Origin: a virus
Lineage: Duplodnaviria; Caudoviricetes
IMG/VR virus record: IMGVR_UViG_2888055400_000002
Location: 18,064-82,063 of that record
Direction: 5' to 3' (one strand)
DNA length: 64,000 bases
Positions 42,733 to 62,766 of this stretch are shown piece by piece. The translations under genes were made by a program, and so were the position numbers. The notes beneath the pieces are model-generated. The model made no database searches, had not been told where the DNA came from, and saw nothing but the letters and a program-made list of their open reading frames with translations. Each line of letters opens with the position of its first letter. Position 1 is the first letter of the stretch.

Positions 42733-42741
42733 GGTTATGAA

Positions 42742-42963
42742 ATGTTATCGAAGCCCTTTGCGATATCAGAAATAAGCGACCCGTCTCAAGTACGGGTTGT
42801 TTTGTATTCTGGCGAGCGTTTTGTGCATGCCCCGCTTAATGGAATTTTAGAATTACTCAAGGCGGATTTGAAGAGAGAATTTGAAAATAGGATCCGCTCT
42901 CTAGAGGAGCGCATACAAGTTTTAAGCACAGAGTTAGAAGAACTGAAAGAGTGTGGATTTTAA
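42742..42963 (+). CDS. Small coiled-coil phage protein
   Basis: SD GAGG, in operon, heptad-like C-terminus. Confidence 0.55.
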   Translation: MLSKPFAISEISDPSQVRVVLYSGERFVHAPLNGILELLKADLKREFENRIRSLEERIQVLSTELEELKECGF

Positions 42964-42992
42964 AGATCAGTTGAAATTGAGGGAGCAAGACC

Positions 42993-44786
42993 ATGGCGAT
43001 ACCCTATCATACGCATGAGTATCAAGTACCAGCAGCAACGAAAGAAGAGATCATAGAGGGGACCTCTATGGATACGGTTGTTGTTCCTAAGTTGTTAGGG
43101 ACGGCATCTCTTTATGCCTATGAAGCCTTTGCAACGGCAGAGCAGGGTGTCCATGCACAGCAAGCCTCGGAACGTGCAACGGCATTAGCTACGACAGCCA
43201 AGCAAACAGCAGATACAGCGAAAAGAGTTGCGGATGAGGCGAAGGAGTTGGTTGATGCATCTGCGGTCACGGCAGGGCAAGCCGTTCAAACAGTGAATGC
43301 GGTTGTTACAACAGCTAACGAGGCAAAGGCAACAGCAGAGCAGGCATTGGCAGCAGGACGTGATGCAAAAAGCAGTGCAGAGACAGCGGTTAACAACTCT
43401 CAGAGTGCGAATGAAGCAGCTTCCAGAGCAGAGACAGAGGCAACAGCAGCGAAGACCACAGCAGAAGAAGCAAAGCAGTTATCAGGAGAAGCGAAGAGCC
43501 AATCAGAGAATGCAGAGGCGTTAGCACAAGCAGCTAAAAGCGCATCAGACGAAGCGAAGCAAGGAATAGAAACAGCCAAGGCAGAAGTTTCAGGAGCAGT
43601 CTCTATTGCAAGGGAAGCCAAACAAGCGTCTGAAGGAGCAGAGAGAGGTGCCAATGAAGCAAAGCAGATGGCGACAGATGCTAAGGGGACAGCGGATGAG
43701 GTAAAATCAACGGCAGAAGCAGTTAAGAGCTTAGTAGATAAAGCAGTCTCTGATGTGCAAGATGTGAAGAATTCTGTTGCAACAGCGGTAGAAAGTTCCA
43801 ATGAAGCGAAGGCAACGGCAGAAGAGGCAAAGGATGTAGCAGAGAAGGGTAAAGGAACTTCAGAAACAGCGATTTCTACAGCTAATGCAGCAAAGGTTAC
43901 ATCTGAAGATGCCAAACAAAAGGCAGAAGCAGCAGTTTCTAAAGCGGATCAGGCGCAACAGGTTGCGGATGAAGCGAGGCGAGTAGCCAATGAAATGAAA
44001 GCAGTAGCAGAGCAGGCGGTGAGTGTTGAGAGACAAGCAGTGCATGCACTTGATGAGTCTGTTAAGGGATTGGTCGAAGATGCCAAACAGAAGGCAGAAA
44101 CAGCACAGACGTTAGCGCAAGAAGCGAAAGCAACAGCCGGTGAGGCAAAAGAAGTTGCAGATCAGGCTAAGAGTTCATCCGAAACAGCAACAGCGAGCAG
44201 TACGGAAGCTCTCACAACAGCGAATGGTGCAAAAAGCATAGCAGAGACAGCGTCTAGAACAGCTGGTGAGGCAAAGGAAACAGCGTCTAGTGCGCTCTCT
44301 GTAGCCAATGATCTTAAGCAATCGGTTGATCATGTCAAGAATACAGCGGAAGCAGCAAAAAGGACGGCAGAAGGGGCAGAACAGAAGGCATTAACAGTAG
44401 AAACGCTAGCTTCTGAAGCGAAGATGAAATCTGTCGAAGCCAAACAATCTGTAGAAGAAGTGAAGAGCACGGCAGATTTGGCAAAGAATATAGCTGATGA
44501 AGCGAAGCAATCCGGTGATGCAGCGCTCAGTGCAGCAAATGATGCGAAGAGTGCGTCAACGGCAGCTTCAAGCTTGATTGATACTGTAAAGCAAACAGCA
44601 GATGAAGCAAAGGCAGTAGCAGAGCAGGCAAAGGGTGCATCAGAAACGGCGACAGTTACAGCAAATGCATCACAAGAGACGGCATCAACGGCAAAAGCCT
44701 TGGCAACTGAAGCGAAACAAACCGCCGATGATGCCAAGCAAGCCGTTGGCGATGTGAAAGTTATAGCAGAAACAGCGGTAACCACG
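42993..44786 (+). pseudogene. Tail-fibre gene, 5' part (Ala-rich coiled-coil stalk), interrupted by island B
   Basis: Ala/Glu/Lys/Thr repeats stop abruptly at ...ETAVTT; the last 16 residues of the called ORF are read from island sequence. Confidence 0.88.
44776..44786 (+). repeat. attL core / target duplication
   Basis: CGGTAACCACG, identical to 60676-60686. Confidence 0.9.
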
Positions 44787-44788
44787 TA

Positions 44789-44801
44789 CAACACATTGAT
44801 T
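44789..44801 (-). promoter_or_regulatory. IHF consensus site at attL
   Basis: CAA-CACA-TTGATT, the reverse complement of WATCAANNNNTTR. Confidence 0.55.
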
Positions 44802-44962
44802 TATAATGATAATTTGCTGTTTTGCATGTTGAATTAAACCCCCGAATATTGTAAGATTTTCTCATCTCAAATCATCTTATGTTCAATCAATTAAAGTCAC
44901 TTACTTGCACGTCATAAGTGGGGTTATCGTGTGGGTAAAAAACCGTTTAGAAAGGAGTAAAA

Positions 44963-46129
44963 ATGCCTCTTATGAATCGTCTTAATGCAAGGGCTGTCGC
45001 AACATTGGGGGCTGGCAAATATAATGATGGTGCCGGCTTGTTACTTCATAAGCGTAAAGATGGGGGTGCTCAATGGCTTTATCGTTACACCATTCATGGG
45101 CGGCGTCGTGAAATGGGCTTGGGTGCCTTAAGAAATGTCTCTTTAAAAAAAGCCCGTGAATTGGCAACCCAATGGCGTTCTGTTTTACACGAGGGTCGTG
45201 ACCCCATTAAAGAACGTGAGAAGCAAAAACGTGAGGCAATGCGTAATCTGCATTATTTAAAAGATATTGCTTTAGATGCTTTTGAAACGCGTAAAGCTGA
45301 ATTAAAAAATGATGGTAAAGATGGAGATTGGTTTTTACCTTTAAAACTTCATATTCTCCCCCAATTAGGCTGTCTCCCTATTTCAGAGATTACACAAACA
45401 GATATACGCAATACACTTGCTCCCATCTGGCATACAAAAGCTAAAACAGCAGAGAGAGCACTAATTCGCCTTAATATTTGTTTCAAACATGCTGCTGCAA
45501 TGGGTTTGGATGTTGATTTACAGGCAACAGAAAAAGCAAAAGCCTTGTTAGGAAAACAACGCCATAAAGTTAAAAACATGCCTGCTATGGATTGGAAAGA
45601 GATACCGGCTTTTTATCAAACACTTTGCCAAACAACAACCATGACACAATTGGCTTTGCGTCTGCTTATTCTTACGGGGGTTCGTACGAGCCCTTTGCGT
45701 CATATCCATAAAGATCAAATTGAAGGTGATATATGGACCATCCCTGCTGAGAATATGAAAGGAAAACGTGATGCTACAACAGAATTTCGCGTGCCTTTAT
45801 CAACCGAAGCATTAGAAATTTTAAAACAAGCGCGCTTGTTGTCGCGTAATGATTTCTTTTTCTCTGCAACCGGTCGGGGTCCCCTTGGTGAAACTTGTAT
45901 GTCACAATACATGAAAAAAACAGGTCTTGAAGCCTGCCCGCATGGTTTTCGTTCTAGTTTACGCGATTGGCTAGCAGAAACAACCGATGCTCCCTATGAG
46001 GTAGCCGAAACCATTCTAAGTCATGTGGTCGGTGGACAAGTAGAACGTGCCTACCGTCGTACTGATTATCTAGAACAGCGTCGTGTTTATATGGATAAAT
46101 GGGCGGCTTATGTCACGGGGCAATCTTAA
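44963..46129 (+). CDS. P4-family tyrosine integrase
   Basis: Close paralog of 27642..28808 with intact R-K-H-R-H-Y residues; SD AAAGGAG. Confidence 0.95.
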   Translation: MPLMNRLNARAVATLGAGKYNDGAGLLLHKRKDGGAQWLYRYTIHGRRREMGLGALRNVSLKKARELATQWRSVLHEGRDPIKEREKQKREAMRNLHYLKDIALDAFETRKAELKNDGKDGDWFLPLKLHILPQLGCLPISEITQTDIRNTLAPIWHTKAKTAERALIRLNICFKHAAAMGLDVDLQATEKAKALLGKQRHKVKNMPAMDWKEIPAFYQTLCQTTTMTQLALRLLILTGVRTSPLRHIHKDQIEGDIWTIPAENMKGKRDATTEFRVPLSTEALEILKQARLLSRNDFFFSATGRGPLGETCMSQYMKKTGLEACPHGFRSSLRDWLAETTDAPYEVAETILSHVVGGQVERAYRRTDYLEQRRVYMDKWAAYVTGQS

Positions 46130-46132
46130 TAG

Positions 46133-46155
46133 ATGGGGTCTTGTACCCCATTTTT
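46133..46155 (+). terminator. Intrinsic terminator after the integrase gene
   Basis: ATGGGGT-CTTGT-ACCCCAT-TTTT; conserved in island A near 27616-27638. Confidence 0.6.
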
Positions 46156-46349
46156 ATTCCATTATCTGTGGATAACTTTCTCTCTTTGTTCTCTCATTTC
46201 GTTTCAATAAGACTCATAAATTATCAAATGAGAAAATACATCATAAAGTACTGTTTTTTATGAATAAACTTACTTTCCAATTTCAACAAAATATGGTTAA
46301 TAAATGGTTATTGATTTGTTTCCATTTTTTTAGATTGAAAGGATAAGTT

Positions 46350-46550
46350 ATGACTGAAAATGATGTTCTTCTTACAGATCGCGAAAGTGCAAAATTATTG
46401 CATATCAGCGTTTCAACATTCCGCCGTCATGTCACCAATGGATCTTTACCAAAGCCTTTAAAATTTGGTTCTTTATCGCGTTGGTTACAATCGGATTTGA
46501 TGGATGTGATTGAAAAAGCAAAAACGCAACGTCAAAGTGACGCTGCATAA
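46350..46550 (+). CDS. alpA: AlpA-family HTH regulator/excisionase
   Basis: Nearly identical to 27216..27422. Confidence 0.85.
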   Translation: MTENDVLLTDRESAKLLHISVSTFRRHVTNGSLPKPLKFGSLSRWLQSDLMDVIEKAKTQRQSDAA

Positions 46551-46641
46551 AAAAAACCTTGTCACATAAGGATGGACAAGGCTTTCTCTTATAAACCAAT
46601 AAGAATATAGCAAAATCCATCCTGTGACGCAACGTTATAGG

Positions 46642-47545
46642 ATGAAAAAAATGTATAATTCTATAAATGCTCGGGGCATTACAAATGCCTTGCGTGGTGT
46701 CTGGTATGGGGCTTATGGACTAGCCCATTGCCCTGCTCATGATGATAGGTCGCCTAGTTTAGCCATTTCTAATGGAAATGATGGGCGTCTCTTACTTCAT
46801 TGTTATGCTGGCTGCTCTTTTAAAGAGATCATACAAGCTCTCAAAAATATCGGGTTGATTAAAAAACAGGCATGTTTTGATCACAAAACTTCTTGTTACA
46901 ATCTCTCTTTCTCAAAACAGTTTTGTTGTGAAGATAACAAGGCAAAACAGAAAGTAGAGAGAGCACAAAAGATTTGGAAGCAAAGTCAACCGATTAAAGA
47001 GACCTTAGCAGAGCTTTATTTACGCAAGCGGGGCATCACTTGTAACTTGCCTCCCTAGTTTACGCTTTCATAGCAAATGTCCCCATCCCTCTGGAAAAAC
47101 CATCCCCGCGTTGGTTGCTCTTGTTGAGGGTGGTGGCTCCTTTGCAATCCATAGAACCTTTTTACAAGACAATGGCTGCAAAACAGAGCAGTTACCAGCA
47201 AAAGCCATGCTGGGCTCTGTTAAGGGCGGTGCTGTGCCTTTAAGCCAAGCCAATCACCAGCATCTGGTCATTTGTGAGGGAATTGAAACAGGTCTTTCTC
47301 TGCTGTCTGGTCTGTTATCAGAGCCTGTGACTTTATGGGCGTCCCTTTCAACCAGTGGCATGATGCATGTGAATTTATCCCAATGCCAAGCCCATCTCAC
47401 TGTAGCGATGGATGGCGATGATGCGGGTCGTAAAGCAGGTTTTGCCCTTGCTGCCCGTTCTTATAGCCAAGGCTTTAAAGTCTTTATCATGCAAGCTCCC
47501 GAAGGAGCGGATTACAATAATTTCTTATTAAATTATGAAAGGTAA
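46642..47545 (+). pseudogene. Zn-finger + Toprim primase split by a +1 frameshift
   Basis: AHCPAHDDRSPSL...HCYAGC in the first frame; ICEGIETGLS...AMDGDDAG Toprim in the second; the frames join at CCC-TAG 47053-47058. Confidence 0.8.
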
Positions 47546-47550
47546 AAAAG

Positions 47551-49161
47551 ATGAAACAAGATGTGCAAAATAACAATGAAAATATTCCATTAAATGATAA
47601 TGATCACAATAACGACAATGTCTCTTTAAAGAACCATGCTTGTTTACAAGCCATTCCTTATGAAGTGGCATTGCAACAAATTGGTTGGGGCGAATTAAAA
47701 CCAATTAGCAGCGCTCTTTTACCGGTTGTGCCTTTTCAGGCTACACAAGTTCCAACAGCATTGGGAAATTATATTTATGATATTGCTGACCGTCAACAAT
47801 CCCCTGTCGATTTCGTTGCCGTTTCTGCCTTGTGTGGGTTAGCAGCTCTTATTGGTAATGGAATTCGCATAGCTCCAAAACAGCATAGTAATGATTGGAA
47901 GATTGTCCCTAATCTGTGGGGTGCCATTATTGGTAATCCTTCTGCCCTGAAAACACCTGCCATGCAAGCGGCTTTAACACCTATCGCTCACCTGCAAAAG
48001 GAATGGTATCAAGAATGGAAAAAACAAAAAAAACGAGCAAAAATTGAAGAAATTCTTGAGGAGCTCAATCAGAAAGAAAAGAAAAAACAAGCTTCTAAAG
48101 CTCTTAAAAAAGGAGATTCTGAAGCTGCCCGTGCTCTTTTGTCGGAAACCCTTTCTAAAGACAATCAACAAGATGATTGCATCTCTCGTTTTATTGTCAA
48201 TGATACGACGGTAGAAAAGCTTGGGGAATTACTCAATGAAAATCCCCGTGGATTATTGATGATACGCGATGAACTCTCTGGCTTTTTAACAAATATGGAA
48301 CGTAAGGAATATCAAACAGACCGTGCTTTTTATTTAGAAGCTTTTAATGGGGATGGTTATTTTTTCTATGACCGTATTGGGCGTGGAACAATCTACATTT
48401 CCAATGCAACGCTCTCTATAATCGGAACAATCCAACCTACGCGTATTCTCCATTTTATCCGTCATGCTTTATATGGAAAAGGAGATGATGGTTTCTTGCA
48501 ACGGTTTCAAATGATTGTGTGGCCCGATGAAAACCAAGAGTGGAAATGGAAAGATAGACCTCCCTTAAAAGATGCCTATAAAGACTATGAAGAGGTTTTT
48601 CGCTCTTTTCGGGATAAACCTTTGGGATCATCGGAACACCCGATTGTGATGCGTTTTTCTCCCGATGCACAAGAACTCTTTCGTGAATGGTGGGAAAAGC
48701 TTCATAGAGAAATCAGAAGGAATGATCTCTCTGAACCCTTACAAGCATATCTTTTAAAAATGCCCAAAACCATACCAACCCTTGCTTTGATTTTTGAACT
48801 TGTCGAAGGAGGACGTTTTGAAATCACTCTCCCTTCTCTCAAAACAGCATTGCGTTGGGAAAACTATTTGTTGAGTCATGTAAAAAGACTTTATGCTGCC
48901 GGCAATGCATCTGTGCAAGGGTGTGCAAAATTGATTGTAAAGCGTTGTGACTGCTTACCTGATATTTTTACCTTACGTGATATTCACCAACGTCATTGGA
49001 CAGATTTAACAGAGCATAGCATTATTCAAAAAGCTTTGGAGTTGTTATGCCGTTCAAACCACATTCGTGAAATCTCTGGAACGAAAAACCCAACAGGTGG
49101 GCGTCCTACCATACGCTATGAATGGCATCCTTTGATAAAAAACAAGAATACAAGACAATGA
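47551..49161 (+). CDS. DUF3987/YfjI-family replication-associated P-loop protein
   Basis: PNLWGAIIGNPSALKTP, DTTVEKLGELL.ENPRGLL..RDELSG, DRIGRG, GTIQP, DDGFLQRF, C-terminal GGRP. Confidence 0.85.
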   Translation: MKQDVQNNNENIPLNDNDHNNDNVSLKNHACLQAIPYEVALQQIGWGELKPISSALLPVVPFQATQVPTALGNYIYDIADRQQSPVDFVAVSALCGLAALIGNGIRIAPKQHSNDWKIVPNLWGAIIGNPSALKTPAMQAALTPIAHLQKEWYQEWKKQKKRAKIEEILEELNQKEKKKQASKALKKGDSEAARALLSETLSKDNQQDDCISRFIVNDTTVEKLGELLNENPRGLLMIRDELSGFLTNMERKEYQTDRAFYLEAFNGDGYFFYDRIGRGTIYISNATLSIIGTIQPTRILHFIRHALYGKGDDGFLQRFQMIVWPDENQEWKWKDRPPLKDAYKDYEEVFRSFRDKPLGSSEHPIVMRFSPDAQELFREWWEKLHREIRRNDLSEPLQAYLLKMPKTIPTLALIFELVEGGRFEITLPSLKTALRWENYLLSHVKRLYAAGNASVQGCAKLIVKRCDCLPDIFTLRDIHQRHWTDLTEHSIIQKALELLCRSNHIREISGTKNPTGGRPTIRYEWHPLIKNKNTRQ

Positions 49162-49299
49162 AACGATAAGAATTTTCTTTCTTTGATCTTTCAAACCCTC
49201 AAAATCTTAGAGTACCAAGAACAATGGTTCATAAGTTATCTTTGAGGGTTTTGTTTTCTGAACACTCTCACTTTTAAAAACAGAAATACAGTTATTGCC

Positions 49300-49470
49300 A
49301 TAGGTTTTGAGTTTTGAAACTTTGTGTTTAAAGAAAAAAACATTAAAAAATAAAAATATTACTTTTCAATATGTTAAGATTTTTAAAACCCTTAAAAAAC
49401 AACCTATTTCCATAATACAACCTGTAAATACAATTAATGATATATGTTTTGAGGAGGTTTTGAAGTTTTA
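49300..49470 (-). repeat. Iteron-like module (CAAAACC type), inverted relative to 55025-55220
   Basis: Minus strand shares TTGTATTTA.AGGTTGTATTATGGAAATAGGTTGTTTTTT and TAACATATTGAAA (49364-49376) with 55025-55220. Confidence 0.55.
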
Positions 49471-49790
49471 TACCCCCCTTCATACCGTCAAGTGAAATGT
49501 ATCATAAAACTCTTCAAAATTGCATATTTGATCTCTTAAAAGCACATATTGGAGTTATTTCAATTTCCCATAAAATGAATAGCAAATTTCAGTAGTTTAC
49601 TTTTTATAGGCTGTTTATAAACTGCATCTTGATTGCATCTTGTTAAATTTTTTTGACGCATTTTGTAGCTTTTTGGGCGGTTTTCGCCCATTTCAGACTC
49701 GATATTTGTTCTAAATGTATTTAATAAACTCCATTTCGATTCTTTCGAAGTCAATTGATTAATGTCATAAGACTATGGAGTTTCTCTATA

Positions 49791-52700
49791 ATGCTTCAAT
49801 CCCTCAAGTCTGATAACAAACAATCTTCTTTACGCGCTCTTTTACAGTCTTATCGTCAACAGGCAAAATCAAATGCACTAAAAGGAAAAATCTTTGAAAG
49901 TTTTGTGACGAAATATCTTATGTATGACCCTCTTCATTATGGACGATATGAAAAGGTTCAAACCTATTATGAATGGGCTAAAGAGCGTGAGGGTTGGAAT
50001 AAAAATGATATCGGCATTGATTTGGTTGCGAAACTTCGTAATCAAGATGGGTATGTTGCCATTCAATGTAAGTTTTATGAAGCAGACCATCAGATCAGTA
50101 AAAAGGATATTGATAGCTTTATCGCCGCATCTGGAAAAGACATCTTTAAATATCGTCTTCTGGTTGATAGCACGGAAGTAGACTTAAGTGACAATGTGAA
50201 TGCCATGATTAAAGGACAAGCGATACCCGTTTATCGCATTGACCTTCGTCATATGGAAAACAGTCGTATAGACTGGCAAATCTTTGCAACAAAAAAAGAA
50301 GTCGTTCTTAAATCGACAAAAGAACCACGCCCCCATCAAGAAGAAGCAATCAAGAAAGTCTGTGAGGGTTTACAAGAAGCAGACCGTGGCAAGCTGATCA
50401 TGGCGTGTGGAACGGGCAAAACCTTTACCAGTCTTAAGATAGCAGAACAACTAGCCGGAAAAGGCAAGCGTGTTTTGTTTTTGGTGCCTTCTCTTGCCTT
50501 GGTATCACAAACAATACGTGAATGGACAGCGGATGCACAAATCCCATTACGCTCCTTTGCTGTTTGTTCGGATACGAAAGTAGGCAAGCGTCGTAAAAGC
50601 CAAGATGATATTGTTGGTATGGAAACATCAGATCTTGTGCTACCAGCAACAACGGATGCACAAGCACTTGCCAAAGAAGCTTGTGAGAACCTAGCAGATG
50701 CAATGACTGTGGTGTTTTCGACTTATCATTCCATCCAAGTGATTTCGGATGCACAAAAAGATCATGATTTACCAGAGTTTGATCTGATCATCTGTGATGA
50801 AGCTCATAGAACCACTGGGACATCATTAGGAAGTGACGACAATGAATCCGAATTTATCAAGGTTCACGATAACAGCATTATTCGGGGCAAAAAACGTCTG
50901 TACATGACGGCAACGCCGCGCATTTTTAGTGACACTGCCAAAAGGCGTGCGGATGAGATTAATGCCGTTCTAGCTTCTATGGATGATGAAACGCTTTATG
51001 GCAAACAACTGCATCATTATACCTTTTCGGAAGCTGTCGATAATGAACTTTTAACCCCTTACAAAATTGTGGTCTTAGGCATTGATGAAACCTATATTAC
51101 ACCAGCCATACAGGATATTATTGCCAATGAAAACCGTGAAATTGATTTAGATGATGCTGCAAAAATTATTGGCTGTTATAGAGCCCTGACCAAAATAGAT
51201 AAGGAAGCTACTGTTGATGAGAATGATACAGAACCCATGCATAGTGCTTTGGCTTTTTGCAAAGATATCAATACCTCTCAATATATTACAAAGCTCTTCA
51301 ATAAAATTATCAAATCTCATATCAATGATTTCCTTCAAACAGTTCCCTTTCTGAACTGTGAAGTAAGACATATTGACGGAAAGCAAAGTGTCAAAAAACG
51401 CAATGAAGAACTGGATTGGCTTAAAGAAGACACTGGTAAAAATGTTTGTCGGATTTTAAGCAATGTTCGGTGTCTTTCAGAAGGAATTGATGTTCCTGCT
51501 CTTGATGCGATCATGTTTTTACACCCGCGCAATAGCCAAGTGGATGTGATACAGGCGGTGGGGCGTGTGATGCGTCGTGCTCCAAATAAGAAAACAGGCT
51601 ATATCATTTTACCGATTATCATTCCCTCACACTTAGAAGCTAAAAAAGCTTTACGAAACAATAAGAGATATCGTGTTGTTTGGCAAGTTTTGCATGCTTT
51701 ACATTCCCATGATGAAAGGTTTGCTAGGACGATTAATCAAATGTCTTTAGGACAAGATAGCAGTCATACGATTGAGATTATAGAGATTAAGCGTGCCAAT
51801 GAATTACAAGAGCTCACCACAACTGTTGATGAGATCTCGATACAGGCAAAAGCAGAAAGTTCTGGACGTACCATAGGAACAGCAGAAAGCAAATCTCAAA
51901 CGTGGTATAAAGAGCAACAAGACTTATTCCGCCATTCTAATTTTTTTGATTTTGTCAAAGCCATTTTTCTGGATAGTTTTAAAATCACGGATTATTGGGG
52001 CATTTGGGCGAACAATGTTGCTGAGATTGCTCAAAACCATATCGTTCGTCTTCAAAACATGCTCTCTGATGAAACAAGTGAAGCCTATCATGCCTTTAAG
52101 AGCTTTTATCTCGAATTAAAGAGCAACATAAACAGTGATATCAAACAAGATGAAGCTGTTGAGATGCTTGCTCAACATCTTGTGACGCGCCCTGTGTTTG
52201 AAGCTTTGTTTGATGGCAATGAATTTGTCCAAAACAATACCATTTCACAAGCAATGGACAAAATACTCATTGAACTCGATAAAACGAATATCGAAGAAGA
52301 GTTGAAAGATCTTGATAAATTTTACAAAAGTATCACGTTCTGTACAGCAGGGATTACCGAACCCCATGCAAAACAGAACCTTATTATCAAGCTTTATGAA
52401 AGTTTTTTTACCAAGGCATTTAAAAAGACAACAGATAGGCTTGGCATTGTTTATACCCCTGTTGAGGTTGTGGATTTTATTATTCATTCCGTTGATGATA
52501 TTTTACGCAAAGAATTTGGCAAGAGTTTAGGATCACGTGGTGTTTCTATTCTTGACCCCTTTACGGGAACAGGTACCTTTATCACACGGCTTTTACACTC
52601 TAATCTCATAAAACCGGAAGATATGGAGTATAAGTTCCGTTATGACATCCATGCCAATGAGATTGTCTTGCTCGCTTATTACATAGCAGCGATTAACATT

Positions 52701-54755: not shown

Positions 54756-55024
54756 ACTTAAGAAAGCATGCTCACATTTCACATGATGGGTATGCACATC
54801 TTACAAGGGGTATAGAGTTTATATCTATACTCTCTTGTTAAAGATGATTATGTACACTCTTAAAAGGAATGATTTACCATGTAATGCCTTTAAAAGATTA
54901 ACTCGCAATTTAAGATGATGCCATCATATCTTTCAAACGCTCTCTTTAAAGAAAACAGTGAATGTTGATATCACTTTACGCTTTTAATTCCTTCATTTTA
55001 AAAAAAGCAAAAAAACACCCCCTA

Positions 55025-55220
55025 TACCCCCAAAACCCCTACAAAACATATGTTATTGGTTGTATTTATAGGTTGTATTATGGAAATAGGTTGTTTTTTG
55101 AAAAATTGGTAAAAATTAACATATTGAAATATAATGATTTTTATTTTTTATTGAAAAAAATTAAAAGAAAAATGAGACAGGCACCTCCAAAACCCCCAAA
55201 ACCTCCAAAATCCTTAAAAC
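55025..55220 (+). repeat. Iteron-like module (CAAAACC type)
   Basis: CCAAAACCC/CCAAAACCT repeats on both sides of TAACATATTGAAA (55117-55129). Confidence 0.55.
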
Positions 55221-55339
55221 TAATAACGATAATAATCTTGATAGCACCTTTCATAATTACACACTCTCTTTTGAAAGGCTTTAAAGAGCCATATGCCCTC
55301 TCATAAAACATGGGTTTAAACACTCAGTAAAATCATAAG

Positions 55340-55545
55340 AATTGTCTGTTAAATTTACTGACAAAAACAGACAAAATGCGTGTCATTAATTGTCTATATT
55401 ACTCACATGACTTTTATACCTGATGTTTTAAAATTTTAAAAAACACTAACATATTGAAATATAATGTTTTTATTTTTATCTCAATTTTTTTAAATGGAAG
55501 GGGGGGTAAATCAACAGACAAAACTAACAAAAGAGACAAAAGCCC
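55340..55545 (+). repeat. Iteron-like module (GACAAAA type)
   Basis: GACAAAA repeats on both sides of TAACATATTGAAA (55447-55459). Confidence 0.5.
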
Positions 55546-55983
55546 ATAAAAAGGTATTTTGATAAGGATATAAGAATTCAATAGGTATATTTAGATCTAG
55601 CTTATAAAAGATAAAAACCGTATTATCTTTTTTATAAAAATGATGCGGTGGCTCTAAAGAATGAATCAAAAGCGTTGGTTATGAAGATGCGATCTCTATT
55701 AAAGCTGTTTAAATTACAAACCGTCTCATAAATGATAACAAAATTCACAAAAAATATTCACAAGGCATTCAATAAAAATAATCATGCTTTATAAAGTTTA
55801 AAATAGGCATTATGAGAGCGTTTTTAGTTATTATGAAGTTTAAAAGAGAAAATAACGCCATTGCGTAATATAGAGTCAAATAGACGCAATAAAACAGAAA
55901 ATATTGATAGGCATATGATGCATATTTATACACAATATGATAAAAAATAATCATAAAAAAATACAAAAAACAATAAAATATAA

Positions 55984-56011
55984 TTGACAATAAATACGTA
56001 TTTTGGTATAT
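55984..56011 (+). promoter_or_regulatory. sigma70-type promoter
   Basis: TTGAC-N17-GTATAT, matching the alphaproteobacterial CTTGAC-N17-CTATAT pattern; conserved in island A. Confidence 0.65.
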
Positions 56012-56025
56012 AAATAATCAAGTGA

Positions 56026-56046
56026 TTGAAAACACTAAACATCAAG
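56026..56046 (+). promoter_or_regulatory. Upstream antisense target (a1/b1-like)
   Basis: TTGAAAACAC and CATCAAG are complementary to 56188-56197 and 56179-56185. Confidence 0.75.
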
Positions 56047-56123
56047 CGGATAGATTACGAAACGATCTTTCCCATTTATAAAAACTGACTGTCTTTTATG
56101 CTGTTGTTAGTATATTAAGATTC

Positions 56124-56207
56124 TGTCGGGTGTGCTACACCATACAATACCCTTCTAGGGAAAAGTGTAAGCAACGGACTTGATGCCGTGTTTTCAAACA
56201 CCCGGCG
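56124..56207 (+). ncRNA. C4-like antisense RNA, island B allele
   Basis: Cloverleaf: TGTCGGGTGT/ACACCCGGCG, GCTACAC/GTGTAAGC, CCCT-TCT-AGGG, ACGG-ACTTGATG-CCGT, unpaired GTTTTCAA. Confidence 0.75.
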
Positions 56208-56231
56208 CTCTTATTTTTATAAGGGTATCAA

Positions 56232-56255
56232 TTGAAAACATTAAACATCAAGGAG
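56232..56255 (+). promoter_or_regulatory. Downstream antisense target (a2/b2-like) overlapping the RBS
   Basis: TTGAAAACA..CATCAAG with SD AGGAG at 56251-56255 and ATG at 56264. Confidence 0.75.
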
Positions 56256-56263
56256 ACACTAGC

Positions 56264-56992
56264 ATGGTTGCTACTGTTAATAAGAAAACATCATCCAAAA
56301 AATATGAGTTCACATATGATATGCAATGCGTCAATGGTCATTTATTGTACCGTATACGTGCTTTAAAAGACTTTGGTGATGTAAAAAAAGGTGATCTCGG
56401 TGGCTATATCGAAAAGCAAAGCAACCTATCTCATAAAGGGGATTGCTGGGTTTATGATCATGCTCGTGTTTTCCAAAATGCTCGTGTCTTTGGGAATGCA
56501 AAAGTAAAGGGTTATTTTGTTGATGTATATGGCAATGCAAAAATTTATGGAAATGCGATTTTCGAAGGTCGTACAATAAATGATTATTGTGAGGTTTATG
56601 GCAATGCGCATGTTAGCAACGCCGTGGTTATTGAAGGCAATGCAAAAATTTATGATAACGCCTCTGTAACGAATTATGCTCATATTTCTGATGATGCTGT
56701 GATTTGTGATGATGCCCATGTCGGGGGCAATGCAAAAATAAGCGGCGCTGCTCATATTTGTGATCATTCTCAAGTTTGTGATGATGCCGTGGTTTGTGGG
56801 GCTCTTATCTCAGGCAATTCTTATGTACATAGTGCCGCCTCTTTAACTTCTGATGATCATATTTGGGACGAGGCATATCCCGAATTTGGTAGTGAAGATG
56901 ATTACTATCGTCACGAATATTATGATGATTATGGTTATGATGATGATTACGAATATGATTGCAATTCTGAAGATGCCAATCAAGCTGCGTAA
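56264..56992 (+). CDS. Beta-helix/hexapeptide-repeat protein with an acidic Tyr-rich tail
   Basis: Conserved head plus hexapeptides; tail EDDYYRHEYYDDYGYDDDYEYD. Confidence 0.88.
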   Translation: MVATVNKKTSSKKYEFTYDMQCVNGHLLYRIRALKDFGDVKKGDLGGYIEKQSNLSHKGDCWVYDHARVFQNARVFGNAKVKGYFVDVYGNAKIYGNAIFEGRTINDYCEVYGNAHVSNAVVIEGNAKIYDNASVTNYAHISDDAVICDDAHVGGNAKISGAAHICDHSQVCDDAVVCGALISGNSYVHSAASLTSDDHIWDEAYPEFGSEDDYYRHEYYDDYGYDDDYEYDCNSEDANQAA

Positions 56993-57002
56993 ATAACACT
57001 GT

Positions 57003-57021
57003 GGGCGCGGCGGGGGCGCCC
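57003..57021 (+). repeat. GC-rich intergenic hairpin
   Basis: GGGCGC-GGCGGGG-GCGCCC. Confidence 0.8.
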
Positions 57022-57073
57022 CTCTCTAACTTTCATTTAAATTTAATCATTATTTAGATTGGGAATAAAACCT

Positions 57074-57745
57074 ATGTCCACTACAACTGTATCTAAAAAA
57101 TATGAAATCACAAATGAAACGCATGTCGTTGGTAATCGTACCCTTTATCGCATTAAAGCATTAAGAGACTTTTCTGATGTAAAAGCTGGTCAATTGGGTG
57201 GCTTTATTGAGAATGAAAATAATCTCTCTCATGATGGTAACTGCTGGGTTTATGATGATGCGTGGGTTGCTGACAAGGGCTTCGTGTCTGATAATGCGCA
57301 AATTTTCAATTATGCTAGCGTTTTCGATAATGCAACGGTTTGTGGTAATGCAAAGGTTTTTGATTGTGCAAAAATTTATGACAATGCAAAAATTGCTGAT
57401 AACGCTAGGGTTTTTGGAAAAACTTTTGTTTACAATCATGCCTGTGTTTTGAATAATTCTGAAGTCTCTGACAGGGCTGTTATAAAAGGCAATGCAAAAA
57501 TTTATGACAATGCTTTGCTAACTGGCTATGCACAAGCTTATGGGAATGCAAAGATTTTTGGCAATGCACAAATTTGGTTTTTTGCTGTGGTTTGTGGTGA
57601 TGTTTGTATTTATGACAATGCAAAAATTACAGGTGGTACATACATTTGCGATAAAGTGAGTGTTTTTGGTAATTCATATATAGATACAAAAAAATTGAAT
57701 GGTCATATCAAAATTTGTGATCAAACCATAAAAGACGTTGCGTAA
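57074..57745 (+). CDS. Beta-helix/hexapeptide-repeat protein
   Basis: Conserved head plus hexapeptides. Confidence 0.88.
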   Translation: MSTTTVSKKYEITNETHVVGNRTLYRIKALRDFSDVKAGQLGGFIENENNLSHDGNCWVYDDAWVADKGFVSDNAQIFNYASVFDNATVCGNAKVFDCAKIYDNAKIADNARVFGKTFVYNHACVLNNSEVSDRAVIKGNAKIYDNALLTGYAQAYGNAKIFGNAQIWFFAVVCGDVCIYDNAKITGGTYICDKVSVFGNSYIDTKKLNGHIKICDQTIKDVA

Positions 57746-57755
57746 ATAACACCGC

Positions 57756-57772
57756 GGGCGTGGGGGGCGCCC
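57756..57772 (+). repeat. GC-rich intergenic hairpin
   Basis: GGGCGT-GGGGG-GCGCCC. Confidence 0.8.
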
Positions 57773-57828
57773 TCTTTTAAAAGAACATTTCACTAAAATT
57801 TTCTAGATATTTAGATTAGGAGCTCCCT

Positions 57829-58545
57829 ATGACCACTATAACTGCATCTAAAATTGTATCCAAAAAATATGAACTTACAAATGAAACCCGTGTATTGGGT
57901 GATTACACACTTTATCGTATTAAAGCATTAAGAGACTTTGGTGATATCAAGGCGGGGCAATTAGGTGGCTTTATTGAAAAGGAAAGCAATCTCTCTCATG
58001 ATGGCAATTGCTGGGTTTATGATGATGCATGGGTTTATGGACAAGCCCGTGTTTATGAGAATGCAAAAATACGTCATAATGCTCAGGTGTGTGGTCATGT
58101 TTATGGTAATGCGCATGTCTGTGACAAAACCCGCGTTTATCCTCATGCCCATGTTTATGACAATGCTCATATTTCCAATAAAGCATGGGTTTATCATCAG
58201 GCGCGGGTTTATGGTAATGCAAAAATCTCAGGTTCTGCTCGTATTAAAGTAAAGGCAAAAGTTTATGATAATGCCGTTGTTAATGGAGCAGCAAAAATTT
58301 ATGGCTCTGTTTATGGAAATGCTAGCGTGGGAGGGCATACTGAGGTTTATGGTTCTGTTTATGGCAATGCAAAAGTGATTGGTTATCACATTATTAGAGG
58401 TTTGGTGCATGGCAATGCAAGATTAAAAAGAGATGGTTATTTATATACCAAACAAAACCCTTCCTATGCATATGGAATTCCTAGGGATTGTGAAATTTAT
58501 GAAGGCGATAACGTTGTAAAGATTAGTGAAAATAAAGCAACGTAA
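57829..58545 (+). CDS. Beta-helix/hexapeptide-repeat protein
   Basis: Conserved head plus hexapeptides; SD AGGAG. Confidence 0.88.
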   Translation: MTTITASKIVSKKYELTNETRVLGDYTLYRIKALRDFGDIKAGQLGGFIEKESNLSHDGNCWVYDDAWVYGQARVYENAKIRHNAQVCGHVYGNAHVCDKTRVYPHAHVYDNAHISNKAWVYHQARVYGNAKISGSARIKVKAKVYDNAVVNGAAKIYGSVYGNASVGGHTEVYGSVYGNAKVIGYHIIRGLVHGNARLKRDGYLYTKQNPSYAYGIPRDCEIYEGDNVVKISENKAT

Positions 58546-58555
58546 ATAACGGCGC

Positions 58556-58574
58556 GGGCGTGGCGGGGGCGCCT
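58556..58574 (+). repeat. GC-rich intergenic hairpin
   Basis: GGGCGT-GGCGGGG-GCGCCT. Confidence 0.8.
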
Positions 58575-58628
58575 GCTTTCCAAACTCTTTCATTTTAAAC
58601 GTGAATCTTCTTATAAAGGAATGGTGCT

Positions 58629-59126
58629 ATGCAAAAAAAATTTGCACTCACTAATGAAATACGTCTCTTTGCTAATCGTACCCTTTATCGCATTAAAGCT
58701 TTAAGAAACTTTTCTGATGTCAAGGCGGGTCAATTGGGTGGTTTTATCGAAAATGAAAATAACCTCTCTCATGATGGCAACTGCTGGGTTTATGATAATG
58801 CTCTGGTTTTAAACCCTGCTCATATTTCTCAAGATGCCAAGGTTTTTAATAACTCTGTTATCGCTGGTTTTGTTTATGGAAAGGCATGCGTTTTTGGCAA
58901 GGCTATCATTTTTGATCATGCTCATGTCTATGGCAATGCAAGAATTTATGATCATGCCCGTGTGATAAATCATCTCCATGTTTGTGAATATGCCAATCTT
59001 CACGGCATGGTTATGATTTTAGAAAAGACACGTGATGATATTGAAACAAGAGCTTATATTGAAAAATTTTCCCATAATGAATTAAGAATTTTCTGGCTGC
59101 GTAATAAAGCCCTTTTAAACATCTAG
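58629..59126 (+). CDS. Beta-helix/hexapeptide-repeat protein (short)
   Basis: Conserved head plus fewer hexapeptides. Confidence 0.85.
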   Translation: MQKKFALTNEIRLFANRTLYRIKALRNFSDVKAGQLGGFIENENNLSHDGNCWVYDNALVLNPAHISQDAKVFNNSVIAGFVYGKACVFGKAIIFDHAHVYGNARIYDHARVINHLHVCEYANLHGMVMILEKTRDDIETRAYIEKFSHNELRIFWLRNKALLNI

Positions 59127-59144
59127 GGTGCTGCGGGGGCGCCC
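59126..59144 (+). repeat. GC-rich intergenic hairpin
   Basis: GGGTGC-TGCGGGG-GCGCCC. Confidence 0.75.
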
Positions 59145-59202
59145 CTCTCTCTCAAATTTTCCGTTCAAATTTTAACACAATCGAAATTGTGAGGCGTTTG
59201 TT

Positions 59203-59991
59203 ATGTCTAAAAAATACCAATTAACAAATGAAATGAAACAATTGAAAGATAAAATGACACAAAAAATTACCAAGCTTTATCGCATTCGTGCTTTAAGAGA
59301 TTTTGATGATGTCAAGGCTGGTGACCTAGGGGGCTTTATTGAAAAGGAAATCAACCTCTCTCATGATGGCAATTGTTGGGTTTATGATGATGCATGGGTT
59401 TATGGACATGCTCGTGTTTTTGACAATGCAAAAATACGTCATCAGTCTCAAGTGTGTGGTCAAGTCTATGGTAATGCACAAATTTGTGATCAGGCGTTCA
59501 TTTCTCAATATGCACAAATATATGACAATGCATTTGTTTATAACAATGCCTCTGTATCTGGGTATGTTTATGGCAAGGCTCGTGTCTATGGCAATAGTCG
59601 CGTTTCAATTGAAGCCCATGTTTATGGCAATGCGCATCTTTCTCATAATAGTTGTGTTTTTGATTATGCAAGGCTCTATGGCAATGCGAGGGTTTCAGGT
59701 TCTGCCCGTCTTTTTAATTATGCGCATGTTTATGGTCATGCTGTTATTAACAACCGTGCAAAAATCTATGGCAAGGTTTATGGCTATGCAAAAGTGAGTG
59801 GCTGTGCTGAAATTTATGGCTCTGTTTATGAAAAAGCTCAGGTTTCTTACACTGTTAAGGTCTGGGGTCGTGTCCATGGGAGGGCACTTCTCAATAGACA
59901 AAGTAAGGTAAAGGTGGTTCCCCAAAATAAGGAAGTTTACAAAAGTGATATTCTTATGGAGCTTATTGAGAAAATTGAGACAGAAGAATAA
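59203..59991 (+). CDS. Beta-helix/hexapeptide-repeat protein (last gene of array B)
   Basis: Conserved head plus hexapeptides. Confidence 0.88.
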   Translation: MSKKYQLTNEMKQLKDKMTQKITKLYRIRALRDFDDVKAGDLGGFIEKEINLSHDGNCWVYDDAWVYGHARVFDNAKIRHQSQVCGQVYGNAQICDQAFISQYAQIYDNAFVYNNASVSGYVYGKARVYGNSRVSIEAHVYGNAHLSHNSCVFDYARLYGNARVSGSARLFNYAHVYGHAVINNRAKIYGKVYGYAKVSGCAEIYGSVYEKAQVSYTVKVWGRVHGRALLNRQSKVKVVPQNKEVYKSDILMELIEKIETEE

Positions 59992-60054
59992 ACAACAAAC
60001 GCGGGGGTGCTCTTTATGTTTAATACCATCTCAAAAGAAAAAAGTACAAAAAAG

Positions 60055-60086
60055 AAAGCCGTGCCAATTTATATGACGCGGCTTTT
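60055..60086 (+). terminator. Putative terminator closing the beta-helix operon
   Basis: AAAGCCGTG...CGCGGCTTTT. Confidence 0.5.
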
Positions 60087-60636
60087 AAATGGAGATATTA
60101 ACATGATTTAGTAAAAAAGAAGCTAATAGCAAATGCATATATACAGAACGTATCATATTACAAGCTCTCTATTCTCTTTATAAAAACTTATCCAAAATAA
60201 TATAAATGAATGCTTCTGAAAGCGCTCTTTTAGATCATCACATTTGAATGAAAAAACATATTAGCTCTGTGATGATTTCAAACTATCAATAACAATGCCC
60301 TCATATTTGAGGTGACTAAAATTAGCCAATCCAAATTTGGATTAATCCCTTTCAAAAGAAAACATTTCAAATCTTTGCATTTAAACAAGCTCTCATATTC
60401 AATTGCGTTTTAACAATGCGATTTATTATGATAAAAACCTCTTATAAAATTTATGAGATGTTATGAATGATAACTGCTTAGCATTTCATTTGAATGCTCC
60501 CATGCGTTATAATATTGGCATCATGATTTGCTTTTTATGCTCTGTTTATAGATGGCTATTGTTTATAAAAAATGTTCAATTGAATCGTGCATAAAAGTGT
60601 GGATTCTTAAGTGGATTCATATAAAATAAATACATT

Positions 60637-60649
60637 CAACATATTGATT
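60637..60649 (-). promoter_or_regulatory. IHF consensus site near attR
   Basis: CAA-CATA-TTGATT; GTGGATTC direct repeats (arm-type candidates) at about 60598-60618. Confidence 0.55.
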
Positions 60650-60675
60650 TTATTGTGTTTTTCTTCGCAATGCGC

Positions 60676-60686
60676 CGGTAACCACG
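60676..60686 (+). repeat. attR core / target duplication
   Basis: CGGTAACCACG, identical to 44776-44786. Confidence 0.9.
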
Positions 60687-62342
60687 GCCAATGCAGCAAA
60701 GAGTATAGCAGATGAAGCAAAAAGCGCGGCGGAAACAGCAACAGCGAAAGCAGAGCAGGCGCAACAAGATGTGAGTGAGGCGACGAGAGTAGCCAATGAA
60801 GCGAAAGCGGCAGCAGAACAAGCTGTACAAGCGGATAGGCAGGTGATAGCTTCTCAAGATGTATCGGTAAAGCAATTAGCACAAGAAGCCAAGAGCACAG
60901 CGGAAGAGGCAAAGAAGGTTGCAGAGGGGGTACAGAAGAAGGCAGAATCGTTAGCAACGGTAGTGGATGAAAGCCAAAAAACAGCAAAAGAAGCAAAAGA
61001 TACAGCTGGTTATGCGAAACATGATGCAGAGCAAGCGCGGTCTATGGCAGAAGCAGCTAAGAATGAAGCGTCTGGAGCAACGAGTAGAGTTATAGATATC
61101 AATCAAGTGGTTGATAATTTTAAAGCTCCCGTAAGTTTAGCACGGACATACTCAGAAGAAGCCAAGGAAAAAGCTGAGTCGGCAGCTTCACAAGCCTATC
61201 AAGCCAAGAGCGAAGCCGAAAAAGCCAAGGAAGTTGCCAATAGTGCGAAAAGGACAGCAGAAGAAGCCAAAAAAACAGCCGATACGACGAAGCAAGAGCT
61301 TGGAGGTATCAAGAGTTCCCTAGAAACGGCAACAACAGCCCATACAGTAGCCTCACAGGCAAAAGTGCTAGGGGAAGAGGTAAACAATTTACTGAAACAG
61401 TCCAATTTAACGGTTCTTTCAATTTCTACGCCGTTTCTTGTTGCGACGGGAAAAAGTGAATTAACGTTGAAAAAAGGAACACATATTACTTTGGCATTAG
61501 ACAATAATACTTTGGTTGCAAGTTATACGGCAGATACAAGAATAAGCGTTCCTTATCTTTCGGCAGGCAAGAATTATTATGTTTATTTGGTGTTTGAAGG
61601 AGAACAGTCTTCTCAAGTTGTAGTGTCAGAAAACTCTACGTATCCAAGTGATTACACAGTGAGCAATTCTCGTAAGATAGGAGGGTTTCATACACTTTGT
61701 GCGGATGTTGGGACGATTGATGGACATCCGTTATCAGGCTATAGTGCAGGGGATATTTTACCCAATTCAGTTTGGTGTTTGAATCACTGTCCCCATAGTT
61801 CTCCAGAAGGAATGGTCTATGATCTCTCACAAGATCTTTGGGTAGATATTTATCTTCAATCAGGGACAGGTGCAAATACGCGTTCGGCGCATGGTGTTGC
61901 TATCACGATCAATCGTAGTTATACGGATTTTGCAGATGACTTGAGGTGCGTGAAGAAGTTCTTATTGAATGATGAACAATTTGCTTCTGCGATGTATGGG
62001 AGCAATGACAGAACCAGCATTCAGGGGAAAAAGTCCCCTAGCCCCAAACATTCTGGAGGACATGTTGATACAGCGGATAGACGCATGATTTCGCACATCG
62101 GATGTGAGGATGGTTGCGGTTATATTTGGCAGTTTTTAGCCGGAACGTTTCCGATGCAGATAGCTTCTGTCGTAGCAGGAAGAAACGCTTTTAGGGTAAG
62201 TATGAATGTTTTGGTAGGCGGTGGGAGCTGGAGTCATGATCCCAATTGTGGAGCCTATATTAGAAGCGCCAACCATGGACGTACTTTAAAGAGTGATCAG
62301 GTAGGAGCCCGTGGTTGTAGCCGTCCACGCCGTTATGTTTAA
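60687..62342 (+). pseudogene. Tail-fibre gene, 3' part: Ala-rich stalk plus Mtd-like C-type-lectin receptor-binding domain
   Basis: Open from 60687 (ANAAKSIADEAK...) in frame with 60771..62342; GFH..NSVW..PEGMV..WVDIYL and GGSW...VGARG motifs recalled from Bordetella phage BPP-1 Mtd. Confidence 0.85.
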
Positions 62343-62355
62343 GGAGACGATAGGA

Positions 62356-62703
62356 ATGAGAGAATATCCAGAGCATTTAAATAGCAAAGAAGATTATTTG
62401 AACATGCTTGAATATGACAAGCTTGAAACGTTGAAAAGATTAGAACAGCTTTTAGAAATGCGTTTTGATTGGGTTTGTATAAAAGAACTTGGAGAAGGTG
62501 AAGAGGGATTAGAAGACGAGAAGCATAAGGTTTGTGTTGAGAAGGAAATGCCTTTAGATTTTGAGACCAGTTTTGTGGAAAAACGGTATCAATATGAATT
62601 ACAAGAGAGCGAATATTCCCCTCTTAATTCCCTTGGCTTTAGTGTTGAAGAAGTAGAGCAATTAATCAAAGAGAATAAAGACAATAGAGATGAAACCGTC
62701 TAG
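62356..62703 (+). CDS. Acidic phage protein downstream of the tail fibre
   Basis: SD AAGGAG; YPEHLNSKEDYLN start; function not identified. Confidence 0.6.
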   Translation: MREYPEHLNSKEDYLNMLEYDKLETLKRLEQLLEMRFDWVCIKELGEGEEGLEDEKHKVCVEKEMPLDFETSFVEKRYQYELQESEYSPLNSLGFSVEEVEQLIKENKDNRDETV

Positions 62704-62730
62704 TTCTCACTGAGATATCCCTTTTATGCC

Positions 62731-62754: not shown

Positions 62755-62766
62755 ATGGAGCAAGCG

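Follow-up and report, generated by a model that had tools for sequence, protein, structure and literature searches.

The stretch of DNA analysed here, referred to as the window, is 64,000 nucleotides long and corresponds to bases 18064-82063 of the 82,063-bp provirus record IMGVR_UViG_2888055400_000002, a prophage whose host is Bartonella. Within the window a receptor-binding tail-fibre gene lies in two parts on either side of an integrase-bearing element, termed island B, and a related element in inverted orientation, termed island A, lies to its left. The 5' part of the fibre gene (42993-44786, + strand; 598 codons) encodes an N-terminal anchor and an Ala-rich coiled-coil shaft, with matches to Pfam Alanine_zipper and to PHROG tail fibre families. 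The 3' part (60687-62342, + strand; 551 codons and a stop) encodes coiled coil followed by an Mtd-like receptor-binding domain (Pfam mtd_2nd, 1.2e-21; phrog_11262, tail protein), and tblastn of this part matched Mtd of the Bordetella phages BPP-1, BIP-1 and BMP-1.

The split fibre gene and its direct repeat

Both parts of the fibre gene end at an 11-bp direct repeat, CGGTAACCACG, that is present exactly twice in the window, each time on the + strand. The left copy lies at 44776-44786 in the crossover region of attL and the right copy at 60676-60686 in attR. The expectation from shuffled sequence was 0.02 matches, and two or more copies were observed in 0 of 100 shuffles. In the frame of the open reading frame (ORF) 42993-44837 the left copy is read as GCG GTA ACC ACG. 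The right copy, read in the frame of the 3' ORF (which extends to 62342), is CCG GTA ACC ACG GCC AAT GCA, such that the two copies share one codon phase. Counting one repeat copy, island B spans 44787-60686, or 15,900 bp. Joining 42993-44786 to 60687-62342 in silico resulted in 1149 codons (598 + 551) without an internal stop, followed by a stop codon. As it stands, the 5' ORF continues for 17 codons into island B up to the stop at 44835-44837, and the truncated product consists of the anchor, the shaft and 16 island-encoded residues, with the receptor-binding domain lost.

Because the fibre contains internal repeats, with 37 11-mers of its 3' part recurring in the 5' part, a shared 11-mer is not rare by itself. 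The repeat is meaningful on account of its location at both of the independently fixed borders of the island. On the left, homology with the inverted island A reaches 44788, and conservation among 98 non-identical family copies starts 2-3 nt past the repeat. On the right, homology with island A in the distal arm ends near 60670, a few bases before 60676. A 28-nt stretch spanning the repeat and its right flank had no match in the viral contig collection, and the end of the N-terminal half of the fibre was matched in 13 of 90 Bartonella genomes, none of which had the same core. The results support a true integrase-mediated insertion of island B in the receptor-binding fibre gene of the prophage, and they likewise support the prediction that precise excision would yield an open gene of 1149 codons.

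Uninterrupted relatives and the empty site

Uninterrupted fibre genes were found in related IMG/VR proviruses and in other Bartonella species, both as single ORFs (L010, 1246 aa; L011, 966 aa; L012, at least 1042 aa) and as stop-to-stop frames (L120, 1495 aa; L121, 1374 aa; L122, 1814 aa). The two halves align in order on these fibres. The 5' part is collinear with residues 1 to approximately 600 of all six, and the 3' part is 51-66% identical to the C-terminal parts of the uninterrupted fibres. Among the sequencing runs listed, the highest share of the sampled words of the window in any one run was 0.13, and no RNA run with these words was listed. Contigs from four contig-only runs were furthermore aligned to the window. 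Logan contigs from the runs of two related strains (X1 record 1, 4797 nt; X4 record 15, 605 nt) bridge 44776 to 60687 and skip 15,910 bp, with overlaps on the shorter side of 239 letters in X1 and 175 letters in X4 and with flanks that are 92-93% identical to the window. As contigs of two strains bridge the site without the island, island B is a derived insertion that these relatives lack.

A draft genome, G002, was 100% identical to the window in all pieces compared (17,596 + 3,714 + 3,140 + 3,696 + 5,601 + 1,219 nt) and does not amount to independent evidence. The sole Mtd-like domain in G002 is the one stranded behind island B, and trans-complementation by a second Mtd-like fibre was rejected on the grounds that the genome has only this one domain. 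The C-terminal half of the fibre resembles Mtd of BPP-1 in carrying mtd_2nd (25% identity over 52% of the query) and differs from it in that the domain is borne on a long Ala-rich coiled coil. A diversity-generating retroelement close to the fibre was also searched for. For the Mtd-like domain region (61400-62342), no RVT_1 match was found anywhere in the record, no second copy of the fibre 3' end that could act as a template repeat was found in the record, and the 1.7 kb beyond the window hold no long ORF except a chromosomal-looking one. Since the record and the 1.7 kb beyond contain neither reverse transcriptase nor template repeat, there is no diversity-generating retroelement in cis.

Upstream of the fibre the prophage encodes the major head protein, virion proteins, ejection-type proteins, a transglycosylase and two tail-collar fibre proteins. 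Downstream of the fibre lies a 224-aa ORF that is lysozyme-like by sequence appearance alone, no family scan having been made of it.

Gene content of island B

The genes of island B listed here all lie on the + strand, in the orientation of the fibre gene. The first is a tyrosine integrase of 388 aa with P4-type architecture (44963-46129; Arm-DNA-bind_3, Phage_int_M and Phage_integrase; phrog_1) that is 90% identical to the integrase of island A. It is followed by an AlpA-type excisionase/regulator of 66 aa (46350-46550; HTH_17; phrog_9834 and phrog_66, excisionase and transcriptional regulator). A frameshift has broken the primase region (46624-47545), with CHC2 Zn ribbon, DUF7146 and Toprim domains, into two ORFs of 144 aa each that lie in different frames (46624-47058 and 47111-47545), and DUF7146 is divided between the two. 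In relatives, 16 of 21 adjacent match pairs have the primase as a single open frame, and the island B copy is therefore a pseudogene. Next to it lies a DUF3987 helicase-like replication protein of 536 aa (47551-49161; Pfam DUF3987, 4.6e-81; phrog_2373, DNA helicase).

The remainder of the island is cargo. A full-length Type ISP restriction-modification (R-M) enzyme of 1666 aa (49755-54755) contains the domains Mrr_cat_2, ResIII, ISP_coupler, N6_Mtase and Type_ISP_C and covers positions 2-1642 of the 1646 positions of the PADLOC profile REase_MTase_IIG at 2094 bits. Five YdcK-like beta-solenoid paralogs (56180-59991) matched YdcK_fam below the cut-off as well as phrog_5070 and phrog_7964, both of unknown function, and had no PADLOC match. 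Pfam and PHROG scans of the island B ORFs gave no structural gene, captured late gene, small terminase or other packaging gene, and no satellite hallmark in the form of a packaging site, a capsid-redirecting gene or a captured late gene was observed in the island. Rfam gave no match in island B at the gathering threshold.

The original prediction, made from the letters alone, had placed the repeat at its two positions with a 1149-codon gene restored upon removal of 15,900 bp, and had described an island with int, alpA, primase, DUF3987 and R-M genes and no structural genes. Sequence search and in-silico joining confirmed the former. The latter agreed with the Pfam, PHROG and PADLOC results, though the primase turned out to be frameshifted.

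Island A interrupts the portal gene

Islands A and B are inverted repeats of each other with arms that are 92-97% identical. The integrase of island A is at 27642-28808 on the - strand, and the end of the island that carries it adjoins the last 28 codons of a portal gene (28986-29070, + strand). Island A runs off the left edge of the window, and in the upstream part of the record (L009) its left end adjoins the first 83 codons of a portal gene (L009:15114-15365, G000:C1). Of the 681 positions of the portal profile the whole record holds only positions 7-61. An inversion between islands A and B was considered and rejected, as every phage gene flanking the islands or lying between them has + strand orientation and the two halves of the fibre share one phase.

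No direct repeat was found in the record at the two ends of island A, because its junctions pair with junctions on other contigs. G002 contains four portal matches. On its contig C13 (L021:7975-9822) the portal, from profile position 61, lies directly against the integrase arm of another island, and this junction shares 9 bp, CTGTTATGA, with the left junction of island A. On contig C17 (L029:780-2700) portal profile positions 13-625 end against a distal island arm, and this junction shares 14 bp with one mismatch, encoding LERQR, with the right junction of island A. Judged from these junctions, two related, diverged prophages each received an island, at different codons of the portal gene. The island A of the record links the left arm of one prophage to the right arm of the other, either through recombination between islands or through chimeric assembly. 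The G002 contigs break inside the islands and are compatible with both. In both cases, a second island interrupts an essential gene of the prophage in which island B lies.

Island arms and the crossover sequence

The integrase-proximal arm (attL arm; 44787-44962, + strand) carries the motif CAACACATTGATTT at 44789 and is 92% identical to the inverted island A arm from 44788. The integrase-distal arm (attR arm; 60380-60675, + strand) carries the co-oriented motif CAACATATTGATTT at 60637 and is near-identical to the left end of island A. CAACAyATTGATTT is thus present in both arms in the same orientation, 39 nt ahead of the crossover segment in one copy and 2-3 nt past it in the other. Three insertions of the family have been mapped with junction repeats: a perfect one of 11 bp, one of 9 bp and one of 14 bp that contains one mismatch. 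The 9-bp and 14-bp portal repeats both equal the native portal sequence of uninterrupted relatives, which favours an identity-dependent exchange.

The empty site of X1, however, reads AAGCTCTACA where the window has GGTAACCACG (44777-44786 / 60677-60686). Of exactly these 10 crossover positions 7 differ, within flanks that are 92-93% identical, and the X1 site is in frame, encoding ASST as compared to AVTT in the window. The difference reflects either a crossover sequence brought in by the island or natural variation among shaft repeat types. The AVTT-ANAAK junction fits the repeat motif of the fibre itself, with xTTANxAK at residues 106 and 408 and AISTANAAK at 43869, and natural variation between shaft repeat types is plausible because both versions fit the xTTANxAK / xSTANAAK motif of the fibre. 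An island-borne crossover sequence was set aside as the primary reading in view of this fit and of the match between the portal repeats and native portal sequence.

In the mechanism proposed, island B would have entered the Ala-rich coiled-coil shaft by site-specific recombination, leaving the 10-11 bp crossover sequence behind as a direct repeat. Strand exchange by the tyrosine recombinase across an overlap of approximately 10 bp is the likely integration route, and AlpA is the putative directionality factor. The insertion separates the receptor-binding domain from its promoter, start codon and shaft. Precise excision by Int and AlpA would restore the open 1149-codon gene.

A family of islands in Bartonella

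The species-representative genome collection contained 365 integrase relatives, and all 78 loci that were kept are from Bartonella, with integrases 83-90% identical to that of island B over the best segment. The complete 2.2-Mb Bartonella chromosome G001 alone has at least 41 matches to the integrase-proximal arm as compared to 8 matches to the island B-type distal arm, and there are therefore several kinds of distal end or many truncated copies. The family copies show 98 different flanks. From the 78 loci 88 integrase-side junctions were taken, of which 87 had usable flanks and 79 were distinct.

Homologues of phage ORFs of this provirus adjoin (within 100 nt) 30 of the 79 distinct junctions. 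The genes struck include an Erf-region gene, an SSB-region gene, phrog_15385, the gene upstream of the large terminase and the large terminase itself. They further include scaffold-like and head-region genes, ejection proteins, the transglycosylase, two other fibre positions (L068 and L094) and the lysozyme-like gene, which has that label from sequence appearance only. Island genes adjoin another 6 junctions, namely Type ISP in three cases and an integrase, fhaB and a solenoid gene in one each. A phage or island homologue is located further away at 11 junctions, and none was found at the remaining 32. Of these 43 junctions, 20 had a flank ORF of at least 76 aa that was scanned against PHROGs, and 23 are unclassified. 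Seventeen of the scanned ORFs matched PHROGs and 3 did not. The matches were to 6 portal fragments at different profile positions, 3 CI/Xre-type regulators, 1 Ant, 1 tail protein, 2 DNA methyltransferases, 1 dNMP phosphatase and 3 families of unknown function; a match to a regulator or a methyltransferase is no proof that the flank is of phage origin. All in all, 53 of the 79 distinct junctions adjoin phage-like or island-like genes, which is a raw count over all 79, the 23 unclassified junctions included.

No tRNA was found at a junction in any of the 87 flanks, the one tRNA detected being 1313 nt away, and the window contains none. A target consensus is nearly absent, with information of at most 0.4 bit at every flank position. 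Orientation relative to the target gene could be classified at 40 junctions. Thirty of these, island A included, are anti-oriented and 10, as in island B, are co-oriented.

A comparison of 83 arm-int-alpA modules gave just five pairs with an identity of 95% or more, besides the self-match of L019, which is island A of the window, and all five are between different assemblies. The sample thus gave no sign of very recent jumping within a genome, as far as sequence divergence can tell; it comprised 80 of the 365 integrase matches with one genome per species, in which recent jumps between strains would be missed. Family members are also nested in each other, with junctions inside the Type ISP R-M and integrase genes of other copies (L057, L092, L075 and L067). 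Three candidate attL/attR pairs were inspected in G001. Pair 1 has a 7-bp repeat within an 11/13 match. Pair 2 (G001:C1:1499914-1528490) lies inside an integrase gene, and the only repeat it shows is a degenerate one of 6 bp. In pair 3 no repeat was found, and it may not be a true pair.

The concentration of the family in prophage DNA reflects either integrase tropism or survival in dispensable DNA. The original prediction had counted island A as a related island in a phage morphogenesis gene, which is correct insofar as the interrupted gene is that for the portal. It had extrapolated from there to a family that targets morphogenesis genes. This did not hold, as junctions were found in early, regulatory, packaging, head, tail and lysis genes and in other islands. 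The survey of insertion sites it had called for placed 53 of 79 junctions at phage-like or island-like genes, without specificity for morphogenesis.

In Tn916/CTnDOT-type transposons the ends are flanked by non-identical coupling sequences, and identity between attP and attB is not needed. It may tentatively be suggested that the islands form a transposon-like clade without a fixed site that homes to prophage DNA, ferries R-M and contact-dependent inhibition (CDI)/fha cargo, nests in itself and dismantles prophages. In view of the differences at the crossover positions of the empty fibre site, this clade may have an island-borne crossover sequence and an identity-free exchange as in these transposons. 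Such an exchange would explain roughly 100 different sites among integrases that are 84-90% identical to that of island B.

Working switch or locked insertion

We consider island B to be, with a probability of roughly 0.7, an old, locked insertion of a large Bartonella integrative-island family in the fibre of a multiply disabled podovirus-like prophage, probably without a working excision switch. Island B would on this account be inactive at present. The portal of the same prophage is also interrupted, the record retaining only the few positions of its profile given above, and the primase of island B is frameshifted. At the level of the family, three quarters of the classified junctions (30/40) are anti-oriented, and the sampled copies are at least 5% diverged, with few exceptions that are between assemblies. 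As one of two possibilities, the original prediction had made particle formation conditional on the excision of island B. Such conditionality cannot rest on island B alone, since the portal is split as well.

Several observations weigh against a locked insertion. No stop interrupts either fibre half in a total of 3.4 kb, and the two copies of the 11-bp repeat are identical. The integrase, AlpA, the two arms and the R-M gene of 1666 aa are intact as well, all of which makes excision competence, or a recent or reversible insertion, possible. Island B is in addition co-oriented with the fibre, as are helper-embedded phage-inducible chromosomal islands (HE-PICIs) with their targets. The portal argument, moreover, hinges on the assembly of the record. 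Partners of both island A junctions exist on other G002 contigs, and each portal may for that reason also be a simple, reversible insertion.

Two other explanations are both rather improbable. The first is that island B is a live helper-embedded satellite that keeps the fibre off until it excises upon induction, the prophage then replicating and packaging the island and infectious particles depending on excision. The co-oriented arrangement with the gene order int-alpA-primase is that of published HE-PICIs, as far as described in excerpts of PMC10111431, and a length of 15.9 kb falls in the 7-20 kb range given for phage satellites in a 2026 abstract (PMC13376191). The perfect repeat, the open and restorable frame and the intact integrase, AlpA and arms are in line with it too. 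The frameshifted primase speaks against such a satellite, as do the lack of any captured late gene, small terminase or packaging gene in the scans of island B, the lack of the doubled HE-PICI motif in its arms and the interrupted portal that is mostly missing from the record. The wider family does not fit either, with 30 of 40 insertions anti-oriented, many of them in early or regulatory genes or in other islands, and no near-identical copies at different sites seen in the sample.

The second explanation, to which we give similarly little weight, is disarmament of prophages to the benefit of the host, the family being kept for knocking out lytic functions while bringing R-M defence and CDI competition cargo. 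It would account for the 53 of 79 junctions at phage-like or island-like genes, for hits in portal, terminase, head, ejection, fibre and lysozyme genes alike, for the Type ISP R-M enzyme and the fhaC/fhaB locus as cargo, and for a prophage that was struck at least twice. The same pattern arises without any such selection, however, if insertions in core genes are purged, and the insertions also destroy R-M and integrase genes of the family itself (the nested loci listed above and pair 2 of G001). That no insertion took place at all, the two fibre parts being neighbouring genes with a chance repeat in common, or unrelated DNA joined by an artefact of assembly, is hardly credible: the fibre is repetitive, with its 37 common 11-mers, and the flanks of island A stem from two different prophages, which makes the long-range assembly doubtful, but in six relatives the gene is single and uninterrupted, the site is bridged in contigs from two other strains, 100%-identical draft contigs span both junctions (L102, window 42381-45520; L101, window 59187-62900) and the repeat lies exactly at both independently defined borders.

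Comparison with known systems

HE-PICIs are satellites embedded in late genes of their helper prophages, with 11capE in prophage 50icd of E. coli as the founder (Tommasini, Mageeney & Williams 2023, PMC10111431). According to excerpts of that report they are co-oriented with their targets, encode int, AlpA and a primase, and belong to one integrase clade that has repeatedly evolved new late-gene sites. Excision was demonstrated, and a 'regulated gene integrity' that serves the satellite was proposed. In the same excerpts the attP carries no replacement sequence, so that the gene is broken until excision, helpers are described as often truncated, and one helper may carry two islands (PMC10111431). 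The notion of a satellite-like island in a late gene of a prophage was thus right as to form, and the kind had already been published in 2023.

Island B resembles the HE-PICIs in lying inside a late gene of a prophage, in an identity block shared by attL and attR (the 11-bp repeat), and in int, alpA and primase genes co-oriented with the interrupted gene. It differs in its host, Bartonella, and in its target, a tail-fibre gene; a search of the text of PMC10111431 gave no mention of tail fibre, Alphaproteobacteria, Bartonella or restriction. The excerpts describe 14 HE-PICI sites with monophyletic integrase subclades, in contrast to the 98 flanks in the Bartonella family among integrases 84-90% identical to that of island B, which argue indirectly against one site per subclade there. 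HE-PICIs are all co-oriented in that account, whereas the Bartonella family has 30 anti-oriented and 10 co-oriented junctions. HE-PICIs are likewise described there as having four zones, with captured phage genes in the late zone, whereas island B has integration and replication zones followed by the Type ISP R-M gene and the YdcK-like cargo. The scans of island B gave no Bro-N protein, capsid or other late gene of the kind found in the HE-PICI late zone, and the cargo of the Bartonella family is for defence or CDI/fha instead of captured late genes. The doubled HE-PICI motif tgTGTATTGCantgTGTATTGCa at fixed distances from the attP centre was absent from both arms, in which one single match to TGTATTGC with 1 mismatch was found.

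A multi-copy 'fha-repeat' and genomic islands with flanking integrase and phage genes have been described in rodent Bartonella (Berglund et al. 2009, PMC2697382), and the repeat varies between strains (Berglund et al. 2010, PMC2847970). Island A, with fhaC/fhaB at 8826-27049 and its integrase at 27642-28808, fits this description, and the family is multi-copy with phage genes at its flanks, whereas island B carries R-M instead of fha cargo. The available passages of the two papers do not deal with attachment sites, insertion in prophage genes, direct repeats or R-M-carrying relatives (PMC2697382, PMC2847970). Literature searches gave nothing relevant that links Bartonella to satellites, PICIs or helper-embedded elements.

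P4-like satellites are characterized by a psu-delta-sid module for capsid size, the alpha primase-helicase, a cos site and integration at tRNA genes. Island B is similar to P4 in its integrase architecture (Arm-DNA-bind_3 and Phage_integrase), in its primase and helicase module and in its defence cargo. It differs in having separate primase and helicase genes and in not being located at a tRNA (0/87 family flanks), and no psu, delta, sid or cos was found in Pfam, PHROG and NCBIfam scans of its ORFs. Regulated gene integrity by excisable elements is also known from SPbeta in spsM, the skin element and the Listeria comK prophage, where host genes are interrupted and excision is developmentally programmed. 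These elements share with island B that a mobile element splits a gene in frame and that precise excision rebuilds it. In island B the target is a prophage gene.

The findings carry the helper-embedded satellite layout beyond the lambdoid prophages of enterobacteria, into a pathogen genus of the Alphaproteobacteria, a receptor-binding fibre gene and islands with cargo for defence and CDI. They also offer a mechanism for a long-noted feature of rodent Bartonella, that of integrase-flanked fha-repeats and islands interleaved with phage genes, in the insertion of P4-type islands in prophage genes and in each other. If the site-free behaviour concentrated in prophages is a true property of the integrase, the family would be a useful system in which to study how tyrosine integrases change or relax their choice of target, and would show in addition how prophages are disabled and made platforms for cargo. 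At the level of the locus, the split fibre is one of several lesions, and no switch is demonstrated here.

Additional features of island A and the upstream prophage region

The two-partner secretion locus fhaC/fhaB of island A (8826-27049) includes two orphan 3' fragments, each followed by small ORFs, and the region repeats at spacings of 2668 bp and approximately 5.2 kb. The Type ISP gene of island A is in pieces (3039-8011, - strand), of which the N-terminal one (793 aa) is at 5630-8011 and remnants of the methylase are at 4406-5152 and below. A match to the Rfam family sRNA-Xcc1 was observed in island A at 1632-1720 (- strand) with 54.6 bits (gathering score 53). It is positioned upstream of the solenoid-gene array and has no counterpart match in island B. 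Further upstream in the record, where a primosomal/replication gene is expected (L009:6465-7675), three overlapping ORFs lie in different frames, only the first of which is covered by phrog_3992, and these may be the remains of a broken prophage gene.

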